A stretch of DNA of 45,982 nt, taken from the UHGV virus genome UHGV-0170246; one strand, 5' to 3'. The notes under the pieces are model-generated. The model worked only from the letters and a program-made list of their open reading frames with translations, was not told where the DNA came from and searched no databases. A program made the position numbers and the translations under genes. This stretch comes from a virus. This document shows, piece by piece, positions 6,980 to 29,154 of this stretch. Position 1 is the first letter of the stretch, and each line of letters begins with the position of its first letter.

Positions 6980-7394
6980 GGTGATAGTTCCCTTAAAGGT
7001 TAAGGATACTCACCACCGTCTGGTTCCAATCATTGGGTGGTGAGACGTACAGGGTTGGAACTACCGGTCACCATGGAATCCGGCGAGTCTTACGACTCCC
7101 CCGCACGCCCCACCATAATTTGGGTGTAGCAGTGCTTTACGCATAAAAAAACCGCTAACGCGGTATGCGCCATGATGATTATCGGGGTTCCAATCCCGAC
7201 CGTAGATTTTGCTACGGCTCGGAAAGTGTCCACCAATGGCGCATTTATGTCAATACAGAGGGATTTTAACAGAGACAACCACATAGCGTGGGTTTATTGG
7301 TAGGCAGAAACAAAAAAACCGCCCTATTGAGGACGGTTCTTTCGTGCTGATCGGATTCGCGGTCCTTTCAGCATAACGTCGTTGTACTAATACA

Positions 7395-7414: not shown

Positions 7415-7644
7415 AACTACATTCTTACCCAACTGAGGTGAATAGTCCACTATTCATATAAAAAAATTTAGCTCATTAGCTCATGCAAAATGAAGGTTTT
7501 TAACTTATTTACGTGTAATCTCATGTAATAAAAGCGTTTTTTATTCCTTCATTATGAAGGGTATGACGTGTAATATGGCTTGGGGCCTTTCCGCCGATTC
7601 GCACCCGGGCACTGACTTTCAGGAAAGGATTATCCACTTGCCGT

Positions 7645-7664
7645 ACCACGCAGGCACAAACAGC
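7645..7664. repeat. Direct repeat copy 2 (ACCACGCAGGCACAAACAGC)
   Basis: See copy 1. Confidence 0.6.
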
Positions 7665-7728
7665 GTGCTTGCTCTCGCGTCATTTTCGTCGGTGGGGATG
7701 CCGTGAAACGGCCTGTAAGGGCCACACA

Positions 7729-7851
7729 ATGAAAAAATACTACATGTGTATTTTTATCGTTGTTACTGGAGCTTTGTTTACGCCACATGGGGAGGGTTGG
7801 AAGATTACTGATAACGCTCTGAATGTGACGATAAACATTAGCAGCAAGTAG
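7729..7851 (+). CDS. Possible small hydrophobic peptide (40 aa)
   Basis: In-frame ATG of ORF 7669-7851; one predicted transmembrane stretch (YYMCIFIVVTGALF); followed at once by a strong terminator; no recognisable family. Confidence 0.2.
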   Translation: MKKYYMCIFIVVTGALFTPHGEGWKITDNALNVTINISSK

Positions 7852-7856
7852 CGATT

Positions 7857-7880
7857 AGGCCCCTTCGGGGGCCTTTTTTA
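7857..7880 (+). terminator. Rho-independent terminator
   Basis: 7-bp stem AGGCCCC/GGGGCCT with TTCG tetraloop followed by TTTTTT. Confidence 0.75.
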
Positions 7881-8276: not shown

Positions 8277-8525
8277 TTACTTCTGGTTGTATTGAGCCTT
8301 GAGTAACTCAAAAGATTTTGTCAGCACTTCTTTCAATGACATATCCATTGAACTGGCGAACGTTTTGTACTCGCGTTTAAATTCAGGGTCGACGTTAAAC
8401 GCCATTTGTGCCCCACCTGATTTGGTTCTGGTTGGCGTTTCAGTCGGGTCGAAAACCTGCGGTTGTTCGATCGATGGCGGTACGCCTTTGCTGTTCTTCT
8501 TTGGTGGTTTTGATGGTGCGGCCAT
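8277..8525 (-). CDS. ParG-like ribbon-helix-helix centromere-binding protein
   Basis: 82 aa, immediately downstream of parA; unstructured basic N-terminal tail and C-terminal RHH-like segment (FNVDPEFKREYKTFASSMDMSLKEVL). Confidence 0.6.
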   Translation of the reverse strand: MAAPSKPPKKNSKGVPPSIEQPQVFDPTETPTRTKSGGAQMAFNVDPEFKREYKTFASSMDMSLKEVLTKSFELLKAQYNQK

Positions 8526-8537
8526 GTGTATCCCCTC

Positions 8538-8570
8538 TTATATAAATCTATAAAACTATAATTATATATT
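8538..8570. repeat. AT-rich motif locus (TATAAATCTATAAAACTATAATTATATATT) downstream of parG
   Basis: Member of the dispersed TATAATTATATA(AAT) motif family. Confidence 0.55.
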
Positions 8571-9237
8571 ACGCGGCAGTAGTCAGAGCCTCAAGCTGGT
8601 TGATAATCCCCTGAATAACGTCGTCTGCCTTTTTGCGTGGCGCAACGTATGAGCATTCAATGAGGCTTAAGCCCTTATCCTGAGCTTTGCTCAGAGCTGG
8701 CTTGTGGGGAATGTACTTATCGACAACAAAGTATGGCGTATTAGCCAGGTACTCTTGGGCTTCAATATAGTCAGCTTCATTTTCAGCCGCGCCGGAAAAC
8801 ACCATGCAAATTTTCTTGATTGGCACACCCTTTTTAACGATGCCGTGAGCAGTGTTAACGGTGGTTTCCAGGTCATCGGTAGAGAATCGGGTTGGCAAAA
8901 TAACCATATCCAGAAATTCAGATAGCTTCGGTACTGATTCAGATGCGTAGGCACCGCCATCAACGATAACCAGGTCGTATACTTCTGATTCGATGATTTT
9001 CTGGACTTGTGATGGTGTGCCGCACGGCTGCGCCGCGATTGCTGGTTCGATATTGTTGGCCATTCTGCGTTGTACCCAACGCGTTACCGTTCCGTTAAGC
9101 ACATCCATATCGATCAGGCATACATTCCAGCCAGCCTTTGCATAAGCAACTGCTAAAGCACGGGCAATTGTTGATTTGGTTACGCCGCCTTTTCCGTTGA
9201 AAATACCTACAGAGATAGTCATTTGTCGAGACTCCAT
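8569..9237 (-). CDS. parA: ParA-family partition ATPase (small type Ib ParA/ParF-like)
   Basis: 222 aa; deviant Walker A GKGGVTKST near the N-terminus; followed by a small RHH protein gene. Confidence 0.8.
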   Translation of the reverse strand: MESRQMTISVGIFNGKGGVTKSTIARALAVAYAKAGWNVCLIDMDVLNGTVTRWVQRRMANNIEPAIAAQPCGTPSQVQKIIESEVYDLVIVDGGAYASESVPKLSEFLDMVILPTRFSTDDLETTVNTAHGIVKKGVPIKKICMVFSGAAENEADYIEAQEYLANTPYFVVDKYIPHKPALSKAQDKGLSLIECSYVAPRKKADDVIQGIINQLEALTTAA

Positions 9238-19728: not shown

Positions 19729-19804
19729 GGCCCCTTAGCTCAGTGGTTAGAGCAGGCGACTCATAATCGCACGGTCATCGGTTCAAATCCGGTAGGGGCC
19801 ACCA
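19729..19804 (+). tRNA. tRNA with anticodon CAU (Met, or Ile2 if lysidine-modified)
   Basis: Hand-folded cloverleaf: 7-bp acceptor stem GGCCCCT/AGGGGCC, D arm, anticodon loop CTCATAA, T arm GGTTCAAATCC, encoded CCA; strongly resembles E. coli ileX as I recall it. Confidence 0.85.
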
Positions 19805-20111: not shown

Positions 20112-20699
20112 ATGGAGGCAATTGCATTGTTTAATCTGATTTATGCAGATCCCCCCTGGGAATACAAAGACAAGTGTAAGGATGGGAATCGTGGAGCTGG
20201 TTTTAAGTATCCAACGATGAAAGCTGAGGAGATTGCTCGTATTCCTGTCTGGCAGCTTGCTAATCCTGAATCGTGTTTGTTGGCCATGTGGTGGGTTCCG
20301 ACTCAGCCAGAAGAAGCGTTGCTGGTGGTTAAAGCATGGGGATTCAGGCTGATGACCATGAAGGGCTTCACATGGAACAAATGTGGTAGCCGACAACCAG
20401 ATAAGCTGGTGATGGGGATGGGGCATATGACTCGTGCAAACAGTGAAGATTGCTTGTTTGCGGTAAAAGGCAAACTGCCGACCCGTCTTGATGCGGGGAT
20501 CATTCAGTCGTTTACATCGCCTCGTCTGGAGCATTCTCGGAAGCCTGATGTGGTCCGTGACAAGCTGGTAAAGCTGTTAGGTGATGTTCCTCGTATTGAG
20601 CTGTTTGCTCGCGGTGATTTACCTGATGGCTGGCATGGCTGGGGCAACCAGTGCAATGGAGGTATCCAGTTGCATGATGCTCTCTGGCAAGTGGCATAG
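20112..20699 (+). CDS. MT-A70 family N6-adenine DNA methyltransferase
   Basis: 195 aa; DPPW catalytic motif (YADPPWEY) near the N-terminus. Confidence 0.8.
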   Translation: MEAIALFNLIYADPPWEYKDKCKDGNRGAGFKYPTMKAEEIARIPVWQLANPESCLLAMWWVPTQPEEALLVVKAWGFRLMTMKGFTWNKCGSRQPDKLVMGMGHMTRANSEDCLFAVKGKLPTRLDAGIIQSFTSPRLEHSRKPDVVRDKLVKLLGDVPRIELFARGDLPDGWHGWGNQCNGGIQLHDALWQVA

Positions 20700-22216: not shown

Positions 22217-22627
22217 ATGGAAAAGAAAGAAGATAAACCGATTGCCATTGGTGCAGAGTCTGTTCCGTTTAAGTTTGAATTATCCCAACTGGTAACAATG
22301 CGTATCAGTGACGAATGGGGAGAAGTTCAAGCCCGTGCTCAGTATGCAAATGGCGAAAACCAGTATCTGATTCACTATCAGGCGGCTGATGGCCGTGCTA
22401 CCACAGAGTGGTTCGGTGAGTCGATGCTGATTGCGATGGAGGATAAACGTCATCCTGGCTGCCCTGTTTTTGCCTGTATTGATTTGCCAGAAGGCGCGGT
22501 ACTTGAAGACGACGAAGAAGAATGCTCATCTGATGGCGAACTTGTCATTACCGGAATCGTTGATGGTAAGCCGGAATACTCTCGTATTGAGGTAAATAAC
22601 GGCTGCCTCCGTTTGATCCCTGCGTAA
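22217..22627 (+). CDS. Hypothetical acidic protein
   Basis: Internal ATG of ORF 22148-22627 preceded by AGGTGA. Confidence 0.4.
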   Translation: MEKKEDKPIAIGAESVPFKFELSQLVTMRISDEWGEVQARAQYANGENQYLIHYQAADGRATTEWFGESMLIAMEDKRHPGCPVFACIDLPEGAVLEDDEEECSSDGELVITGIVDGKPEYSRIEVNNGCLRLIPA

Positions 22628-22861
22628 CGCATTACAGCAGCTCTTGTGCCTATCAGGGGCTGCGATAATGCGCAAACCAAAGCTGCCTCATTAACTCCAG
22701 CTCGCTGTGGAGTTAATGCTGGTGGCTTTTTTATTACTGGAAGGTGGGCGACCGCCGTCAGTTGCGACCTGACGACAGTCATTCATACCCACAGGGTGCC
22801 GTGGATACAAACCGAGGCCCACTTGCTTGCACAAGCGAGGGGATTTTAGCGGATAAACGGC

Positions 22862-23533
22862 ATGACAAAACATCTTAATGTGGTTTCTTTACCACTTTCT
22901 GTGTTGATTGGTTATGAAAAGAACGCTCGCACACACTCCGTGGAGCAGGTAGATCAGATTGTTGCCAGCATACAGGAGTACGGATGGACTAATCCGATCC
23001 TGATAGACGAGAACAACGTTGTAATTGCTGGTCATGGTCGAATTGTTGCGGCCACTCAGTTGGGGATGGATGACGTTCCCTGCATTGTTCTGGAAGGGCT
23101 AACGGAGAATCAGAAGAAGGCATATCGTCTGGCCGACAACCGTATTCCGCTGAATGCTGGTTGGGATGAAGAGTTGTTAAGCGCGGAACTTGCAGATCTT
23201 GCGGCCGATGATTTTGCTCTGGACTCAATTGGTTTTACTCAGCGCGAACTGGATAACTTATTGAGTGCGGCGGTCTACGATGACACAGAGGGTATGGATA
23301 TCCCATTTGAGAAGGATGAGGCCAAATCAGGCGTAAAAGTTCAGTACCTGTCATTTGGAGGTCATAAAATCCCAGCAACGGATGGGAAGCGGATCGTTTT
23401 GACTGCGCGGTATCTCGTTATGTTGATGATAATGGCAGCTATATCGGATTTGTATCCGCATTGCTGGCTGGGGAGGTGTGCTGATGCTTCATCTCAATTA
23501 CGACATAACGCACCTACGCGGCGCGGAATATAA
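22862..23533 (+). CDS. ParB-like nuclease domain protein (paralogue 1)
   Basis: 223 aa; ParB/Srx motif AGHGR; about 55% identical by eye to the protein at 26151-26741 over the N-terminal ~130 aa. Confidence 0.7.
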   Translation: MTKHLNVVSLPLSVLIGYEKNARTHSVEQVDQIVASIQEYGWTNPILIDENNVVIAGHGRIVAATQLGMDDVPCIVLEGLTENQKKAYRLADNRIPLNAGWDEELLSAELADLAADDFALDSIGFTQRELDNLLSAAVYDDTEGMDIPFEKDEAKSGVKVQYLSFGGHKIPATDGKRIVLTARYLVMLMIMAAISDLYPHCWLGRCADASSQLRHNAPTRRGI

Positions 23534-24857
23534 CCCGCGTTTTATCGGTGAGGATGATCTTGCGAGGCTGGCGGAAAGCGTCAGGGAGCTGGGGCTTGTG
23601 AAGCCATTGATAGTGCGCGGCGATTTGCTGGTGGCGGGACACCAAAGGACGAAGGCGCTACGTAAGTTGGGAATAACGCGTGCTGCGGTGTATGTGTTGC
23701 CCTGTGAAACGACGGTATACGACGAAGTACGGTTTAACCAACTGCATAACGGAACGGATTTTGACAGCGGAGATGAGCGTTGCAGGGTGTCAGGTCTGGA
23801 AGATAAGCATGGTTTTGTTCAGGTATCGGCAAGCCAGATCTCAGGCAATATGCGCGCGAAAATGGCATATGTTCGAAAGAACATAGCGGAACTGGTTATC
23901 AAGTATGGGCCGTGGGGTGGTTGTGTTGCTACTCAGTCTGGTGAGGTTATTCACTGTGCTCAGTATGCATTAGCAGCGAAGATGACGCGCACACCGCTAA
24001 CGGTGTTTGTGATCCCTGATGTTGAGAAGGAAAAATACCAAAGTTATCTGAATAAAACTTATGGTGTATTTGAGTATTCTCACCTGGAGAAAACAACATA
24101 CATCCAGACGTATGCGCAGCTTATGCGGTTGCGTAATGGTGGCAGCCTGAAATCAAACCTGTATGAGTCGTTGATCCTCCCGATCATTGCCAAGACGCCA
24201 AGAGGAATTGATTTTGGTTCGGGGCAGGGAGACTACGCGCGAATGCTCAGGGCAAAGGGATATAACCTGCATGATCTAGAGCTTTTCCGCCGTAAGGGCG
24301 CTGGAAACACTCTGGATAGGACTGCAACAAACCGGATGATTGATACGCTGGTGGACGACTTAAAAACGCGAGGGCGTTACGACTACGTGATTTGCGATAG
24401 CGTTTTGAACTCGGTCGATAGTGTCGAGGCTGAATGGTCCGTTCTAACGGTTCTGAAAGGCCTGTGTAAAGCTGGTGGGTCAATATTCTTTTCTGGTCGT
24501 AGCCGTGGAGAGCTGGAAACAGTCCTGAAGCAAACACAAGCGGCGAGTTCCAAAAGCCGGCTTTATTTTATTGATCATAACGGTTTTACCGCGTTGTACC
24601 GGAAGGGGCACTGGTTTTACCAGAAGTTTCACTCTGATGATGAAGTGAAGCAGTTGTGTCGTGTACATGGTTTCAGGATTAAGCGGTCAATATTCAACTG
24701 TAAGAGCTGGTATTTGCACGTCATTAACGATGATTCCCTTAGTTGGGCGAGTCTGGAGAAAGCTGTTCGTTTTGAGTTTGAGTTGCCGTTGCCTGGTGGT
24801 TCAACAATCGGACGATCTGATGATGTGCTGGCGGCTTTCCGGCCGTTGATTAAGTAG
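23484..24857 (+). CDS. ParB-like N-terminal domain fused to a class I SAM-dependent methyltransferase-like domain
   Basis: GGGAGG RBS before ATG 23484; N-terminus LLVAGHQRTKALRKLG is ParB-like; C-terminal region has motif I IDFGSGQG, acidic post-I, hhhhD (YDYVICD) and GG motif; no DPPY-type motif seen. Confidence 0.55.
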   Translation: MLHLNYDITHLRGAEYNPRFIGEDDLARLAESVRELGLVKPLIVRGDLLVAGHQRTKALRKLGITRAAVYVLPCETTVYDEVRFNQLHNGTDFDSGDERCRVSGLEDKHGFVQVSASQISGNMRAKMAYVRKNIAELVIKYGPWGGCVATQSGEVIHCAQYALAAKMTRTPLTVFVIPDVEKEKYQSYLNKTYGVFEYSHLEKTTYIQTYAQLMRLRNGGSLKSNLYESLILPIIAKTPRGIDFGSGQGDYARMLRAKGYNLHDLELFRRKGAGNTLDRTATNRMIDTLVDDLKTRGRYDYVICDSVLNSVDSVEAEWSVLTVLKGLCKAGGSIFFSGRSRGELETVLKQTQAASSKSRLYFIDHNGFTALYRKGHWFYQKFHSDDEVKQLCRVHGFRIKRSIFNCKSWYLHVINDDSLSWASLEKAVRFEFELPLPGGSTIGRSDDVLAAFRPLIK

Positions 24858-24873
24858 TCTGTAGGAGGCGCTG

Positions 24874-25593
24874 GTGGCTGACAGAATTGAGATAAAGATT
24901 GATTTTTCTTCTCAGGATATTCAACGACAACTCCAGCGCCTTGAAGAACGCGAATTGCCGTTCGCAATGGCGCTTGCGGCAACCAGAACGGCAAAGGCTT
25001 CTCAGGCTGCGATTAAGAATGAAATTAATCGGGTATTTGACAGGCCCACGCCGTGGATTCAGAACTCTACTTACGTTTTGGCCGCAAAGAAGAGTGATCC
25101 TACAGCCATTGTGTATGCTCGTGAATGGGGAGGAACGCCAGCCCCTGTAACGTTGACTCCGCAAATCGAAGGTGGCCAACGACAGTACAAACGCTCAGAA
25201 GGGGCGCTAAGGGCTGGTGGATATTTGCCTAACGGCTGGCAGCTTGCTCCTGGTCCCGGCGCAAAGCTGGACAAATACGGGAATATTTCGCGGGGGCAAT
25301 TACAGCAGGTCTTATCTGGCCTAAGAGTTCAGCGAGATGTGCATCAAAATCGCCGTCAGGGCAAGCCTACGGAGTTTTTTGTTGTTCGACCTGGTACAAG
25401 TAACCCGCTTCAACCAGGCGTCTGGCAGCGCGTTGGGCGGCGTCCTACGTTGATCCTTACGTTTATCCAGCAACCTAACTATTCGCAGCGTCTTGATTGG
25501 CATGGCGTGGCGCTGCGTGCTGGTGAGGATGCGTTTGCTGATGAAGTCACAAAGGCTATTGATGACATTCTTTCTAAGACCTTCTCTCGTTAA
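24874..25593 (+). CDS. Hypothetical protein (239 aa) between ParB-domain genes
   Basis: GTG start with AGGAGG RBS; family not recognised. Confidence 0.45.
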   Translation: MADRIEIKIDFSSQDIQRQLQRLEERELPFAMALAATRTAKASQAAIKNEINRVFDRPTPWIQNSTYVLAAKKSDPTAIVYAREWGGTPAPVTLTPQIEGGQRQYKRSEGALRAGGYLPNGWQLAPGPGAKLDKYGNISRGQLQQVLSGLRVQRDVHQNRRQGKPTEFFVVRPGTSNPLQPGVWQRVGRRPTLILTFIQQPNYSQRLDWHGVALRAGEDAFADEVTKAIDDILSKTFSR

Positions 25594-25599
25594 TCATCG

Positions 25600-26150
25600 T
25601 GTGGTTGATGGTGTTGTTATGCAGAGTGTATTCACTGTGTTCTGTAGTGTCGCTCGCTGGCTGTCTGTGGGGGAGCACGAGCATCGTTTCATCGTCCGGC
25701 AGAATTGGGTCCTTCTGGCCAAAAGCGTTGGATGCGGGTCATTCGAACCCCGATGTTCGGCTAGCTAAACGTGAAAAAAGTTAGGTTAAAAGTTTCGGTA
25801 AAAGAAATTTACTCATCTCATTGAAAAACATCGGGAAAACGTGATTTTTTGCTGTGCTTGTGATGGTGAAAAGAAAGTAGAGAATTTTCTTTTAGATCAT
25901 CAAGATACGCGCAGATCTTTAACCAATGTAAGGCTGTTTTGATAAAAATCGTTATAAATCATGCAAATACATCCAATCTTTTAACCAAAACACCATATCA
26001 AGATCCTTTTTACTTATAAAAACTTAATAAAATCAGATGATTATTCTGGTTTGTGTGATTTTTTATGAGTAAAAAGATCGTCATTTTTCTCTTTTAGTAT
26101 CAATAAGTTAAACAGTTTTCTTTAACCTGTTGTGTTATGGCGGTTAAAAA
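25600..26150. promoter_or_regulatory. ORF-free AT-rich intergenic region with three copies of (A)TCTTTAACC; candidate late promoter and/or packaging (cos/pac) region
   Basis: Repeats at about 25916-25930, 25973-25990 and 26113-26125; lies upstream of the ParB-like and terminase genes. Confidence 0.3.
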
Positions 26151-26741
26151 ATGGCTCTAAAAATCGAATATTTACCAGTCGGTAAGCTGCTCAGATACGC
26201 CAAAAATTCACGGACTCATTCAGATGAGCAAGTTGAACAGTTGGTGAACAGTATCCGTGAGTTCGGTTTCACTAATCCTGTGCTGATCGATGAAAAGAAT
26301 GAACTGATTGCGGGGCATGGGCGGCTTGCAGCAGCCGAAATTCTGGAAATGGATAAAGTTCCAGCGATTCGGTTGAGTAACCTTTCTGAAAAACAGAAGA
26401 AGGCTTACAGGATTGCAGATAACAAGCTGGCCTTAAATGCTGGCTGGGATATGCAGCTTCTGGCCGAAGAAGTCAAAGCGTTAATGGATGATGATTTTGA
26501 TATTGATCTGCTTGGGTTTAATGATGCAGAGCTTGACGAAATGTTAAGCGATGAACAGCCGCAGGAAGAAGACGATAATTCTTCCCCTGTTGTTCAAATT
26601 AAGTACCTGGCTATTGATAAAGAACGTATTCCCGCGACGGATATGGAAATTGCATTGTTGCTGGATGTTTATCGTCAGTACCACGACGCGCATGAAACGC
26701 ATGAGGGATTTGTTCAGTATCTTGCTAATGGTTGCAAGTAA
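26151..26741 (+). CDS. ParB-like nuclease domain protein (paralogue 2)
   Basis: 196 aa; AGHGR motif; paralogue of 22862-23533. Confidence 0.7.
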   Translation: MALKIEYLPVGKLLRYAKNSRTHSDEQVEQLVNSIREFGFTNPVLIDEKNELIAGHGRLAAAEILEMDKVPAIRLSNLSEKQKKAYRIADNKLALNAGWDMQLLAEEVKALMDDDFDIDLLGFNDAELDEMLSDEQPQEEDDNSSPVVQIKYLAIDKERIPATDMEIALLLDVYRQYHDAHETHEGFVQYLANGCK

Positions 26742-27292
26742 TGGCCATCGTCAGTAAGTCAGAGTTTGCCCGCCGAAAAGGTATTTCTCCGGCAATGGTT
26801 ACGAAGCTCTGTCGTTCCGGTCGCATTCCAGTGCTGAAAAGCGGCAAGCTGGATTTTGATAAAGCTAGTGCGGCTTATGAAGCGAGCCGACAGGTTGGTC
26901 GTGAGGTATCTGCTGAAAATGGAAAAAGAGGGCATGGGATATCTTCGGAACAACCAGAGTTACCCGCTGATGATGCCGGATTAGCTGGTGGTACTTCCGG
27001 TGTTGCGGTGCAATTCAACAAGGCTAAGACCGCAGAAAAAATTTATCAGGCAAAGCTGAAACGCCTTGAATTTGAAGAAAAGGAAGGCTCTCTCATCGCT
27101 AAAGATGCGGTCAGGGATGATGCATTTCTGGCAGCTAATGAATTGCGTAGCCGCTTATTTAGTATTGCTCCAAGAGCAGCTCCCCGTTGTGAAGGCAAAA
27201 CAGCCAGGGAGATCGAACGCATTATTGAAGACGAGATTAATTTTGCGCTTCAGGCGCTCCAGGAATCCCGATTTATTAAGCAGGAAGAATAA
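26741..27292 (+). CDS. Terminase small subunit (Nu1-like)
   Basis: ATG overlapping the upstream stop (TAATG); N-terminal HTH-like SKSEFARRKGISPAMVTK; immediately precedes the large subunit. Confidence 0.6.
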   Translation: MAIVSKSEFARRKGISPAMVTKLCRSGRIPVLKSGKLDFDKASAAYEASRQVGREVSAENGKRGHGISSEQPELPADDAGLAGGTSGVAVQFNKAKTAEKIYQAKLKRLEFEEKEGSLIAKDAVRDDAFLAANELRSRLFSIAPRAAPRCEGKTAREIERIIEDEINFALQALQESRFIKQEE

Positions 27293-27297
27293 ACCTC

Positions 27298-29154
27298 ATG
27301 GGCGAAACAGTATGGAGCACCGCTTTTTTCCGTGCGCTTCGCCCTAAATCACGGCTAACTGTTTCCGAATGGGCTGATAAGTATCGTCATGTAGCGCCGG
27401 GAACGTCTCCAGAGCCAGGGCCGTGGCGTACAAGCCGAGTGCCATATTTGCGTGAACCAATGGATGTTATTGGTGACGCTGATACAGAAACAGTAGTGAT
27501 GCAATGTAGCTCGCAAATTGGTAAATCCGAATTACAGCTAAATGTTATGGGTTACTTTGCAGATCAGGAGCCATCTCCTCAGTTGATGATTTATCCAACG
27601 GTAGAGGCGGCTGAGGCTTTTTCAAAAGAGCGTATTGATCCGACGTTCAAATATTCCCCTGGTTTGAAACACAAGCTGCATGAAGGGAAAGAGGGGCGCG
27701 GTGCAGCCAAAAAGTCCAGCACGACTATACGTATGAAGCATTACGCTGGTGGATATATAGCACTTGTTGGTGCTAATTCCCCAGCAGGTCTTGCATCCAG
27801 GCCAATTCGAATACTGTTAGCTGATGAGATTGATCGTTACGGTGTGACGCAGGAGGGCGACCCACTAAAACTAGGTATTCAGCGTACTACCAACTTTCAT
27901 AATCGTAAGAAAGTTTTTGTTTCTACTCCTGTTTTGGAGGAAACGAGCAAAATCCACAAGTGGTTTAAGCTCTCCGATCAGCGTTACTACCATGTTCCTT
28001 GCCCATGTTGTGGCACCATGCAGGTGATGAAATGGTCGCAAGTCAGATGGGATAAGAGCGATTCAGGTGAGGCGTTACCGGAAACGGCCAGATATGAGTG
28101 CTGTGAGTGCGGCGGGATTATGCGCGGATCTGGTAAACCAGACGTTGATTGGTTGGCGAAGGGGGTATGGATAGCTGAACATACTGGAATTAAAGGTATT
28201 GTTGGTTTTCATATTAACAGTCTTTACTCCCCGTGGGTTGCATTGTCAGAGCTGGTTGAAGAGTTTACGGAAGCAACCAGAAACCGCGATAAAAATGGAT
28301 TAATGGAGTTTATTAACCTTAAGCTGGGTGAGCCATGGAAAGAGGATGCTAAAGACGATATCGATCCTGAATACTTGTTGCAACGCAGAATAAGGTTTGA
28401 AGAGTTTTTACCAGATGATGTTTTATTGTTAAGTGCTGGTGTTGACGTACAGGACACGTATTTAGTTTGTGAATTGGTCGGTTGGGGAAAAGGTAAGGAG
28501 TCATGGGGGATAGAATATAAAATATTCCCAGGTGATCCCGCACAAGATGTTGTCTGGAAACAACTTGATGAATACTTACTCCGTAGCTGGTCATTCCGTG
28601 ACGGTAGAAAATTACAGATTTCTTCCGTTTGTATTGACTCTGGTGGGCATTTTACGACAGAGGTATATCGCTTTACTAAGCCGAGAGAATCAAGGCGAAT
28701 ATACTCTATCAGGGGGCGTGGTGGGGTAGGTTTACCATTTATAGGAAAGCCAAGTAATAATAACCGTGTGGGTGCTATGTTGTTTAATTTGGGGGTTGAT
28801 GATGGTAAAGGGACCATCATGGCAAGAATTAAACTACATGATCCTGGTCCTGGTTATATGCATTTCCCATTAGATTCTGACAGAGGATATGATACCGAAT
28901 ACTTTAAAGGATTATTATCAGAGAAAAAAATATTTGAATATAAAAATGGGCAGACAAAAGAAAAGTGGGTGAAAGTCTACGAGCGTAACGAGCCTCTTGA
29001 TTGCCGTAACTATGCAACTGCCGCGATGGAAATTCTGAACCCTAATTTTAACTGGCTTGCCGAACAGGAAATGCGAGGTAATGTGTATGTGCAGAACTCG
29101 TCAGGTATACGTAGAAGACGCCGTAGAGTTATAAGTAAAGGCGTAACCATATAG
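27298..29154 (+). CDS. Terminase large subunit (lambda GpA family)
   Basis: 618 aa; N-terminal GpA-like pattern with P-loop CSSQIGKSE. Confidence 0.85.
   Translation: MGETVWSTAFFRALRPKSRLTVSEWADKYRHVAPGTSPEPGPWRTSRVPYLREPMDVIGDADTETVVMQCSSQIGKSELQLNVMGYFADQEPSPQLMIYPTVEAAEAFSKERIDPTFKYSPGLKHKLHEGKEGRGAAKKSSTTIRMKHYAGGYIALVGANSPAGLASRPIRILLADEIDRYGVTQEGDPLKLGIQRTTNFHNRKKVFVSTPVLEETSKIHKWFKLSDQRYYHVPCPCCGTMQVMKWSQVRWDKSDSGEALPETARYECCECGGIMRGSGKPDVDWLAKGVWIAEHTGIKGIVGFHINSLYSPWVALSELVEEFTEATRNRDKNGLMEFINLKLGEPWKEDAKDDIDPEYLLQRRIRFEEFLPDDVLLLSAGVDVQDTYLVCELVGWGKGKESWGIEYKIFPGDPAQDVVWKQLDEYLLRSWSFRDGRKLQISSVCIDSGGHFTTEVYRFTKPRESRRIYSIRGRGGVGLPFIGKPSNNNRVGAMLFNLGVDDGKGTIMARIKLHDPGPGYMHFPLDSDRGYDTEYFKGLLSEKKIFEYKNGQTKEKWVKVYERNEPLDCRNYATAAMEILNPNFNWLAEQEMRGNVYVQNSSGIRRRRRRVISKGVTI

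Follow-up and report, generated by a model that had tools for sequence, protein, structure and literature searches.

Why does a phage carry three genes with a ParB fold just upstream of its terminase genes, and what is the methyltransferase that is fused to one of them? This question is raised by the virus genome UHGV-0170246, a stretch of 45,982 nucleotides that is referred to here as the window. Between positions 22862 and 26741, the forward strand encodes a short acidic ParB-fold protein (ParBs1; 22862 to 23533), a fusion of a ParB domain with a class I S-adenosylmethionine (SAM) methyltransferase domain (ParB-MT; 23484 to 24857), a basic protein of 239 amino acids (ORF3; 24874 to 25593), and a second short acidic ParB-fold protein (ParBs2; 26151 to 26741). 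An earlier note on this sequence had called the same four open reading frames (ORFs) and had recognized three ParB-fold genes upstream of the terminase. Both calls were borne out, the ParB folds by Pfam, PHROG, and PDB matches and the position by the TerS and GpA-type TerL genes that follow. We suggest that the ParB genes constitute a late modification module of the ParB-Tls type that acts on phage DNA before packaging, a reading to which we give slightly less than an even chance.

Conservation of a two-gene core

ParB-MT belongs to a family with at least 781 homologues at an E value of ≤0.001, counted among 8,000 candidates scored in a 90%-identity database. The proteins are approximately 460 amino acids long and share many invariant residues, the gammaproteobacterial and alphaproteobacterial members are 45 to 60% identical to each other, and both the ParB and the Methyltransf_23 domains were found in most of the best 120 of the 781 homologues. 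We collected 76 viral loci that encode ParB-MT, of which 63 had enough upstream sequence for the preceding gene to be scored. A short ParB gene was located directly upstream of ParB-MT, on the same strand, in 58 of the 63 loci, and most of these gene pairs overlapped by a few nucleotides. A GpA-type TerL was encoded 0.5 to 3.6 kb downstream of ParB-MT in 22 of 66 loci, and the first large downstream ORF encoded a Terminase_6 or Terminase_1 TerL in 9 of 10 other loci that were sampled. The terminase genes that follow the pair belong to three different families, and the phages are those of both Pseudomonadota and Bacteroidota; Bacteroides phage BS-TP3, for example, has the gene order ParB, ParB-MT, TerS, TerL. 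The pair was also present in integrated prophages and in lytic-type contigs, and a Brochothrix phage encodes a 27%-identical fusion in its replication module, without a short ParB. ORF3 and a second short ParB were seen beside the pair in close relatives (identity of 70% or more) and not beyond them. Two genes make up the conserved core of the locus; the first encodes a short acidic ParB, and its translation is coupled to that of the second, which encodes the basic ParB-MT.

According to the earlier note, its reading would be refuted if all four genes were assigned to packaging or modification families with established roles; the searches gave no such assignment. PHROG 5475, which ParB-MT matches from end to end (E value of 1.6e-265), is labeled "unknown function," and the ParB-MT gene was found in only 7 of 50,697 sequenced phage records, none of them that of a studied model phage.

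The ParB-methyltransferase fusion

ParB-MT consists of a ParB_N domain (residues 1 to approximately 91), a family-specific middle domain (residues 92 to 236), a class I SAM methyltransferase domain (residues 237 to 415), and C-terminal helices. The Pfam domains PF02195 (ParB_N) and PF13489 (Methyltransf_23) are therefore combined in one phage-encoded polypeptide. The Methyltransf_23 match scored 32.6 bits against a cutoff of 27. The ParB_N match, at 24.3 bits, was just under the Pfam cutoff of 26.3 bits, and the fold was supported by a match to the PHROG ParB family (E value of 2.3e-14), by a match of the ParB-MT family profile to Spo0J (PDB 6sdk; E value of 3.9e-8), and by ParB, Spo0J, and Noc sequences in the PDB, which likewise support the ParB fold of ParBs1. 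The arginine of the GHQR motif, R55, is invariant. No [DNS]PP[YFW] motif was found anywhere in ParB-MT, nor was a PF01555 (N6_N4_Mtase) domain, which sets the protein apart from the ParB-fused DNA amino-methyltransferases. The earlier description of a class I enzyme without a DPPY-type motif, which may not be a conventional amino-methyltransferase, was therefore correct. The protein is basic, with an isoelectric point (pI) of 9.2 and a net charge of +12.6, of which +10 resides in the methyltransferase domain. An AlphaFold2 model (pLDDT of 95.1; pTM of 0.91) predicts that ParB-MT folds as one compact unit.

The middle domain (positions 23757 to 24191 of the window) is highly conserved. It had no Pfam match and only chance matches in the PDB (G-alpha; E value of about 0.5), and an exhaustive search of 1.84 billion representative proteins found it in 209. 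Nearly all of these proteins are approximately 455 to 490 amino acids long and have the domain at about residues 92 to 240, which is the architecture of ParB-MT itself; therefore, there is no other architecture from which a function could be borrowed. A match to a 1,348-amino-acid protein, with 21 stretches, appeared repetitive and was discarded as spurious. The order of secondary-structure elements had hinted at a second, degenerate ParB domain at residues 101 to 200, an idea that gained no support at the sequence level, where hhalign comparison of residues 1 to 100 with residues 101 to 200 returned a probability of 0.2%.

The short ParB proteins

Short ParB proteins of this family have a median length of 208 amino acids. 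A conserved nucleotide-binding domain is followed by a helical, acidic middle part, then by a linker that is also acidic but variable, and finally by approximately 45 conserved C-terminal residues. ParBs2 was above the Pfam ParB_N cutoff (33.6 bits) and matched PHROG 620 with an E value of 1.1e-74. ParBs1 was just under the cutoff (24.1 bits), and its fold was backed by PHROG 620 (E value of 1.6e-69), with the match covering only residues 1 to 176 of the protein encoded in the window. The window carries a private 1-nucleotide deletion between positions 23384 and 23385, either a genuine mutation or an error of sequencing, which replaces the C-terminal segment, conserved across the short-ParB family, with a frameshifted tail. 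In seven close relatives, ParBs1 is intact, is 207 amino acids long (corresponding to positions 22862 to 23484), and has a TGA stop codon that overlaps the ATG of ParB-MT at 23484, indicative of translational coupling. Of the two short ParB proteins of the window, only ParBs2 thus retains its C-terminal segment intact.

The two short ParB proteins are 51% identical. In an unbootstrapped neighbor-joining tree, ParBs2 clustered with the methyltransferase-adjacent ParB proteins of other GpA phages, and its sequence therefore points to a diverged paralogue rather than a recent tandem duplicate. The Box I arginine, the GxxR arginine, and the Box III asparagine are retained in ParBs1, ParBs2, and ParB-MT, and the NxR/NPR and DN/N motifs are present. 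The glutamate of the canonical GERR motif is replaced by histidine in all three proteins, giving GHGR in both short ParB proteins and GHQR in ParB-MT. The first 150 or so residues of the short ParB proteins matched the N termini of models for ParB-fused DNA methyltransferases, with E values of 5e-50 and 6.6e-52 for PHROG 498 and of 6e-38 and 1e-40 for PADLOC MTase_II; the NCBIfam and PADLOC searches gave no further assignment.

Both short proteins are strongly acidic, with a pI of 4.3 for intact ParBs1 and 4.6 for ParBs2 and net charges of about −21 and −18, respectively. Since ParB-MT is positively charged, these values fit a partner protein and a nucleic acid enzyme. A ParB that binds DNA would not usually be so acidic, and one may ask whether interactions with proteins or DNA mimicry are involved. 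No DNA-binding domain, including a helix-turn-helix, was detected in the short ParB proteins by Pfam scan. The most acidic part, residues 96 to 145, bears a GF..EL..LL motif.

A possible late modification module

For the ParB-Tls locus, a role in the modification of phage DNA during packaging has been predicted (Iyer et al. 2013, cited from PMC6536676 and PMC4738411). The window has the same layout, in that the enzyme gene lies between a ParB-like gene and TerL, in the order ParBs1, ParB-MT, and, further downstream, TerS and TerL. A biochemical precedent is provided by a phage thymine dioxygenase, 5mYOX176, which needs the adjacent ParB protein, ParB176, on double-stranded DNA (O'Toole et al., 2026; PMC13229309). 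ParB176 has nucleotide-binding and C-terminal domains and no DNA-binding domain (PMC13229309). The short ParB proteins, encoded next to ParB-MT, are consistent with this picture in their conserved nucleotide-binding domain, acidic middle, and conserved C-terminal segment and in the lack of a helix-turn-helix match, a likeness of description rather than of structure or direct alignment.

On this basis, we propose that the short ParB and ParB-MT would be made from the late transcript while replicated DNA is readied for packaging. By analogy with ParB176 and 5mYOX176, the short ParB would act as a nucleoside triphosphate (NTP)-binding partner or activator that holds ParB-MT on double-stranded DNA, and ParB-MT would transfer a methyl group from SAM onto the phage DNA. 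The resulting mark could shield the genomes of the progeny from nucleases of the host. The catalytic domain is more like small-molecule and O-methyltransferases than like the amino- or C5-methyltransferases of DNA, and for this reason the mark would perhaps not be N6-methyladenine, N4-methylcytosine, or 5-methylcytosine (m6A, m4C, or m5C). ParBs2 would represent a second partner-type ParB, with ORF3 and the cohesive-end site (cos) described below as neighbors.

Several observations weigh against this proposal. DNA as the substrate of ParB-MT is something that we infer. By Foldseek and PDB profiles, the methyltransferase domain was nearest to UbiG, Trm9, glycine N-methyltransferase, and similar class I enzymes, and ParB-MT has neither a DNA-methyltransferase catalytic motif nor a recognizable target-recognition domain. 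The phage already has a DNA methyltransferase of the MT-A70 family. Mutations of the NTP site did not impair ParB function in the ParB176 precedent (PMC13229309), and an NTP-gated clamp is therefore not established even there. A position upstream of the terminase is also conserved for unrelated accessory genes. ParBs1 is frameshifted in the window, and, finally, an unannotated protein of approximately 145 amino acids that is encoded right after ParB-MT in 38 of 68 loci is absent from it.

The members of this third-gene family are 135 to 175 amino acids long (loci L005:2210-2644 and L003:9419-9883 and 36 more). The family has at least 827 members, all labeled hypothetical, with the invariant residues W, H, C, Y, C, N, H, C, R, and N and the motifs HCARCL, YLCGVSxPYxW, and TCRNFQFG. 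It had no Pfam, PHROG, or real PDB match and no relation to ORF3; rows for polyubiquitin among the PDB results, with 0 passing stretches, were taken to be an artifact. No copy of the gene was found in the window, and because the third gene is absent and ParBs1 is frameshifted, the module of the window may be reduced or incomplete. We consider it rather unlikely that the short ParB and ParB-MT, joined elsewhere by this Cys/His-rich third protein, constitute a ParB-partnered noncanonical DNA-marking system around packaging. If they do, the mark, being neither m6A, m4C, nor m5C, would be chemically distinct, the first of a new class among the modifications by which phages counter restriction.

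Alternative explanations

The resemblance of the catalytic domain to generic methyltransferases keeps alive an unlikely alternative, namely, that ParB-MT methylates a target other than DNA, such as a protein, RNA, or a nucleotide or small molecule, for example, a host defense signal. In that case, the ParB fold would be a regulatory domain that binds NTPs or a domain that binds the substrate, and the short ParB would have a regulatory role. Foldseek and PDB profile searches matched only small-molecule, tRNA, and protein methyltransferases; ParB-MT has no DPPY or C5 motif; and the middle domain is confined to the ParB-MT family and bears no nucleic acid-binding signature. Furthermore, Srx and SerK are examples of ParB folds that work as enzyme modules, and bacterial ParB-SAM-methyltransferase fusions have been reported to bind ATP (Kaljevic et al.; PMC12704722). 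However, the same ParB subtype is found in fusions with bona fide DNA methyltransferases, genes for DNA modification typically occupy the place between ParB and TerL (PMC6536676), and the methyltransferase domain is strongly basic.

The invariable closeness of the pair to TerS and TerL could instead mean that the ParB-fold proteins are packaging accessories, which would recognize, nick, or organize the cos or pac site for the terminase, while the methyltransferase would adjust this step. The gene that comes first after cos is ParBs2, whose stop codon overlaps the start codon of TerS, and ParB domains that nick DNA have been reported, e.g., Bce_0392 as cited in PMC5512222. We nevertheless judge this role improbable. 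The pair accompanies three unrelated terminase families, which argues against a specific terminase partnership, and GpA terminases bring their own nuclease. The short ParB proteins are very acidic and lack a detectable DNA-binding domain, the fusion is as rare among sequenced phages as noted above, and four phages with distant ORF3 homologues share the GpA TerL and portal layout with no ParB-MT nearby.

Still less probable, in our assessment, is a role as DNases under NTP control, of the kind suggested for Osa and DdrB, that degrade host or rival DNA or exclude superinfecting elements. The ParB/Srx superfamily does include DNases and NTPases of conflict systems (PMC5512222), and the conserved arginine of the active pocket is kept. 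In contrast, the glutamate of the GERR motif is the residue that was lost to histidine, no second nuclease domain is present, and the obligate pairing with a methyltransferase and the conservation of that enzyme would be left unexplained. Finally, that these are centromere-binding partition proteins of a phage-plasmid, as the depositors' labels and the occurrence of the element as a ~48-kb plasmid prophage (79 of 82 Escherichia coli matches on plasmids) might suggest, is very improbable, since their scores for the canonical partition ParB model TIGR00180 were 16 to 40 bits, below the cutoff of 58.45, the search for a helix-turn-helix domain found none, the ParA gene lies 13.6 kb away on the other strand beside an 82-amino-acid ORF, and the pair also occurs in integrated prophages and lytic-type contigs.

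The role of ParB-fold proteins outside chromosome segregation is a current open topic, and the first proof of a phage ParB activating a DNA-modifying enzyme dates from 2026. The ParB-MT family is large, highly conserved, and present in the phages of at least two phyla. If ParB-MT marks DNA, as in the modification module that we favor, it would represent a new methyltransferase class in phage anti-restriction and would extend the principle of ParB activators beyond dioxygenases; otherwise, a common enzyme of late phage infection would seem to have a target other than DNA. Since the phage-plasmid is present in the reference strain E. coli ATCC 25922, genetics and methylome work would be straightforward.

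A putative cohesive-end site within the cluster

The earlier note had listed 25600 to 26150 as an intergenic region; the gap, at 25594 to 26150, is more than a spacer and holds a putative cohesive-end site and a repeat array. The deposited record of Yersinia pestis phage vB_YpM_41 starts with GGTCATTCGAAC followed by CCCGATG, while the record of vB_YpM_44 starts with CCCGATG and ends with GCGGGTCATTCGAAC. These deposited ends are offset by 12 nucleotides, which suggests a 12-nucleotide cohesive end. The sequence GGTCATTCGAAC occurs once in the window, at 25737 to 25748. Relatives conserve it, and one that is more distant has GGTCATTCGTAC. It is probably the cohesive end (cosN) of the phage-plasmid group, with the chemistry of the ends deduced from the deposited termini. 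The 12-nucleotide terminal offset and the ATPase and nuclease domains of the GpA-type TerL agree with packaging of the lambda cos type.

Further downstream, the 366 bp from 25784 to 26149 are AT rich and contain 5 of the 10 YTTTAACC matches of the window, in both orientations. Relative L014, whose ParB-MT is 70% identical, has about a dozen copies of GTTAACC at the same place. By analogy with lambda, these repeats are probably TerS sites in a cosB-like array, and binding by ParBs2 is also possible. The IHF consensus had one match in this region (26098 to 26110), and the 4 matches in the whole window, compared with 2.8 expected, were not significant. Single-strand folding of the cos region was also unremarkable (z = 0.29). 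The mapped cos and repeat array provide a defined packaging signal for the phage-plasmid group.

The position of cos inside the cluster means that ParBs1, ParB-MT, and ORF3 end the right arm of the genome, while ParBs2, TerS, and TerL open the left arm. The stop codon of ParBs2 overlaps the ATG of TerS (TAATG at 26739 to 26743), so that the two are translationally coupled. TerS (26741 to 27292, forward strand) matched PHROG 57 with an E value of 7.4e-42, and TerL, of the lambda GpA type (27298 to 29154, forward strand), matched the Pfam families GpA_ATPase (E value of 7e-76) and GpA_nuclease (E value of 1e-84).

ORF3 is the last gene before cos. The earlier note had called it a 239-amino-acid unknown, which held insofar as it had no Pfam, NCBIfam, or PDB sequence match, and its sequence was not assigned by the profile of the HK97 gp10 family (Pfam PF04883). 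It did match PHROG 1924 ("minor tail protein"), and its fold has an HK97 gp10-like core flanked by long helices. All four of the distant homologues of ORF3 that were examined (30 to 40% identity; L083, L084, L090, and L091) are located directly upstream of a gap of 105 to 170 bp. Behind the gap come a TerS-sized ORF, a TerL of the GpA type, and a lambda-type portal, and ParB-MT is absent from the vicinity. The company that ORF3 keeps is therefore that of the GpA packaging and head module, and it is a neighbor, not a component, of the ParB module. It can be described as a conserved pre-cos gene. The proposal in the earlier note of a single bracketed unit of four genes was not upheld, as cos splits the genes, ORF3 belongs with the GpA module, and ParBs2 is coupled to TerS.

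The element and its other genes

The region is 98 to 99% identical to Escherichia phage vB_EcoM-613R2 and to Y. pestis phages vB_YpM_39, vB_YpM_41, and vB_YpM_44; a literature search found no paper on the three Yersinia phages. Plasmids of approximately 48 kb that match the region were present in 74 of 5,426 complete E. coli genomes, including that of ATCC 25922. On E. coli plasmids lay 79 of the 82 matching places, with the other 3 on chromosomes, and PLSDB holds 62 plasmids of the same kind, all typed as nonmobilizable. The element is therefore a temperate myovirus whose prophage is maintained as a plasmid.

An ATPase of the ParA type, 222 amino acids long, is encoded on the reverse strand at 8569 to 9237 and adjoins an 82-amino-acid ORF with no Pfam match, forming a cassette at 8277 to 9237. 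The ParA gene lies 13.6 kb from the ParB cluster, on the opposite strand, and this cassette is likely the plasmid partition cassette, separate from the ParB cluster. Rfam matches above the gathering score were obtained for C4 antisense RNA, isrK, and ryfA, at 7033 to 7120 (reverse strand), 7145 to 7218 (reverse strand), and 7581 to 7879 (forward strand); they appear to lie near the place where a 99%-identical plasmid encodes an ORF6N-domain protein.

The MT-A70 family DNA methyltransferase (20112 to 20699, forward strand; Pfam MT-A70 E value of 2.9e-23) has a DPPW motif and is encoded in the same codirectional gene block as the ParB genes. A scan of 22500 to 27400 for promoter and terminator signals found none above chance. 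A tRNA gene with a CAU anticodon is located at 19729 to 19804, between the lysis genes and the MT-A70 gene; ARAGORN called it tRNA-Met, and the equivalent gene in a relative was annotated as tRNA-Ile by PGAP.

Comparison with known systems

The closest described systems are the ParB-Tls loci of phages with ParB-fused N6/N4 DNA methyltransferases (Iyer et al. 2013), among them Paracoccus prophages (PMC6536676). In these loci, a ParB-like gene and TerL likewise flank the methyltransferase, and, as in those loci, the genes in the window are phage borne and codirectional with the packaging genes. The N termini of the ParB-Tls fusions match the short ParB proteins of the window with E values of about 1e-38 to 1e-52. 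However, the catalytic domain in the window is Methyltransf_23 without a DPPY motif rather than PF01555, the fusion adds the family-specific middle domain and is accompanied by a separate short ParB, and cos cuts the locus. M.EcoGII was also considered as a ParB-fused analogue and was dropped, as its paper mentions no ParB domain.

Like ParB176 and 5mYOX176 (PMC13229309), the pair in the window places a short phage ParB beside a putative DNA-modifying enzyme, often near terminases. In contrast, the enzyme in the window is a SAM methyltransferase with a ParB domain of its own, and the two systems are likened by description, not by sequence. Fusions of a ParB-CTPase domain with Methyltransf_23 are among those most enriched in phages in the survey of Kaljevic et al. 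(2025; PMC12704722), which, in its treatment of these fusions, suggests that they are "perhaps anti-defense." The domain pair and the enrichment in phages and prophages are the same in that survey, in PHROG 5475, and in our family; the survey offers no analysis of the substrate, partner, or locus, and its NTP-binding and Discussion sections are silent on the short ParB that accompanies the fusion, on the middle domain, and on the third gene that often follows.

The ParB proteins of the window resemble the ParB and Noc proteins of canonical ParABS systems in their N-terminal ParB/Srx fold and GxxR arginine, and their best PDB sequence matches are Spo0J, ParB, and Noc. They differ in having no helix-turn-helix and no ParA-adjacent operon, in scoring below the TIGR00180 cutoff, and in the replacement of GERR by GHxR. 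The packaging region resembles the cos-Nu1-A region of lambda, with a GpA TerL, a probable 12-nucleotide cohesive end, and a repeat-bearing AT-rich stretch between cosN and the first packaging gene, whereas in the window a ParB gene lies between the cosB-like region and TerS and the repeats are YTTTAACC. The earlier note had regarded the cluster as a candidate for an undescribed system, and here these comparisons lead elsewhere. The layout is that of the ParB-Tls locus as outlined in PMC6536676 and PMC4738411, and the fusion is already cataloged as phage enriched in PMC12704722. The locus is an already described type, built round a cataloged enzyme family, and it is a good experimental lead rather than a new kind of system.

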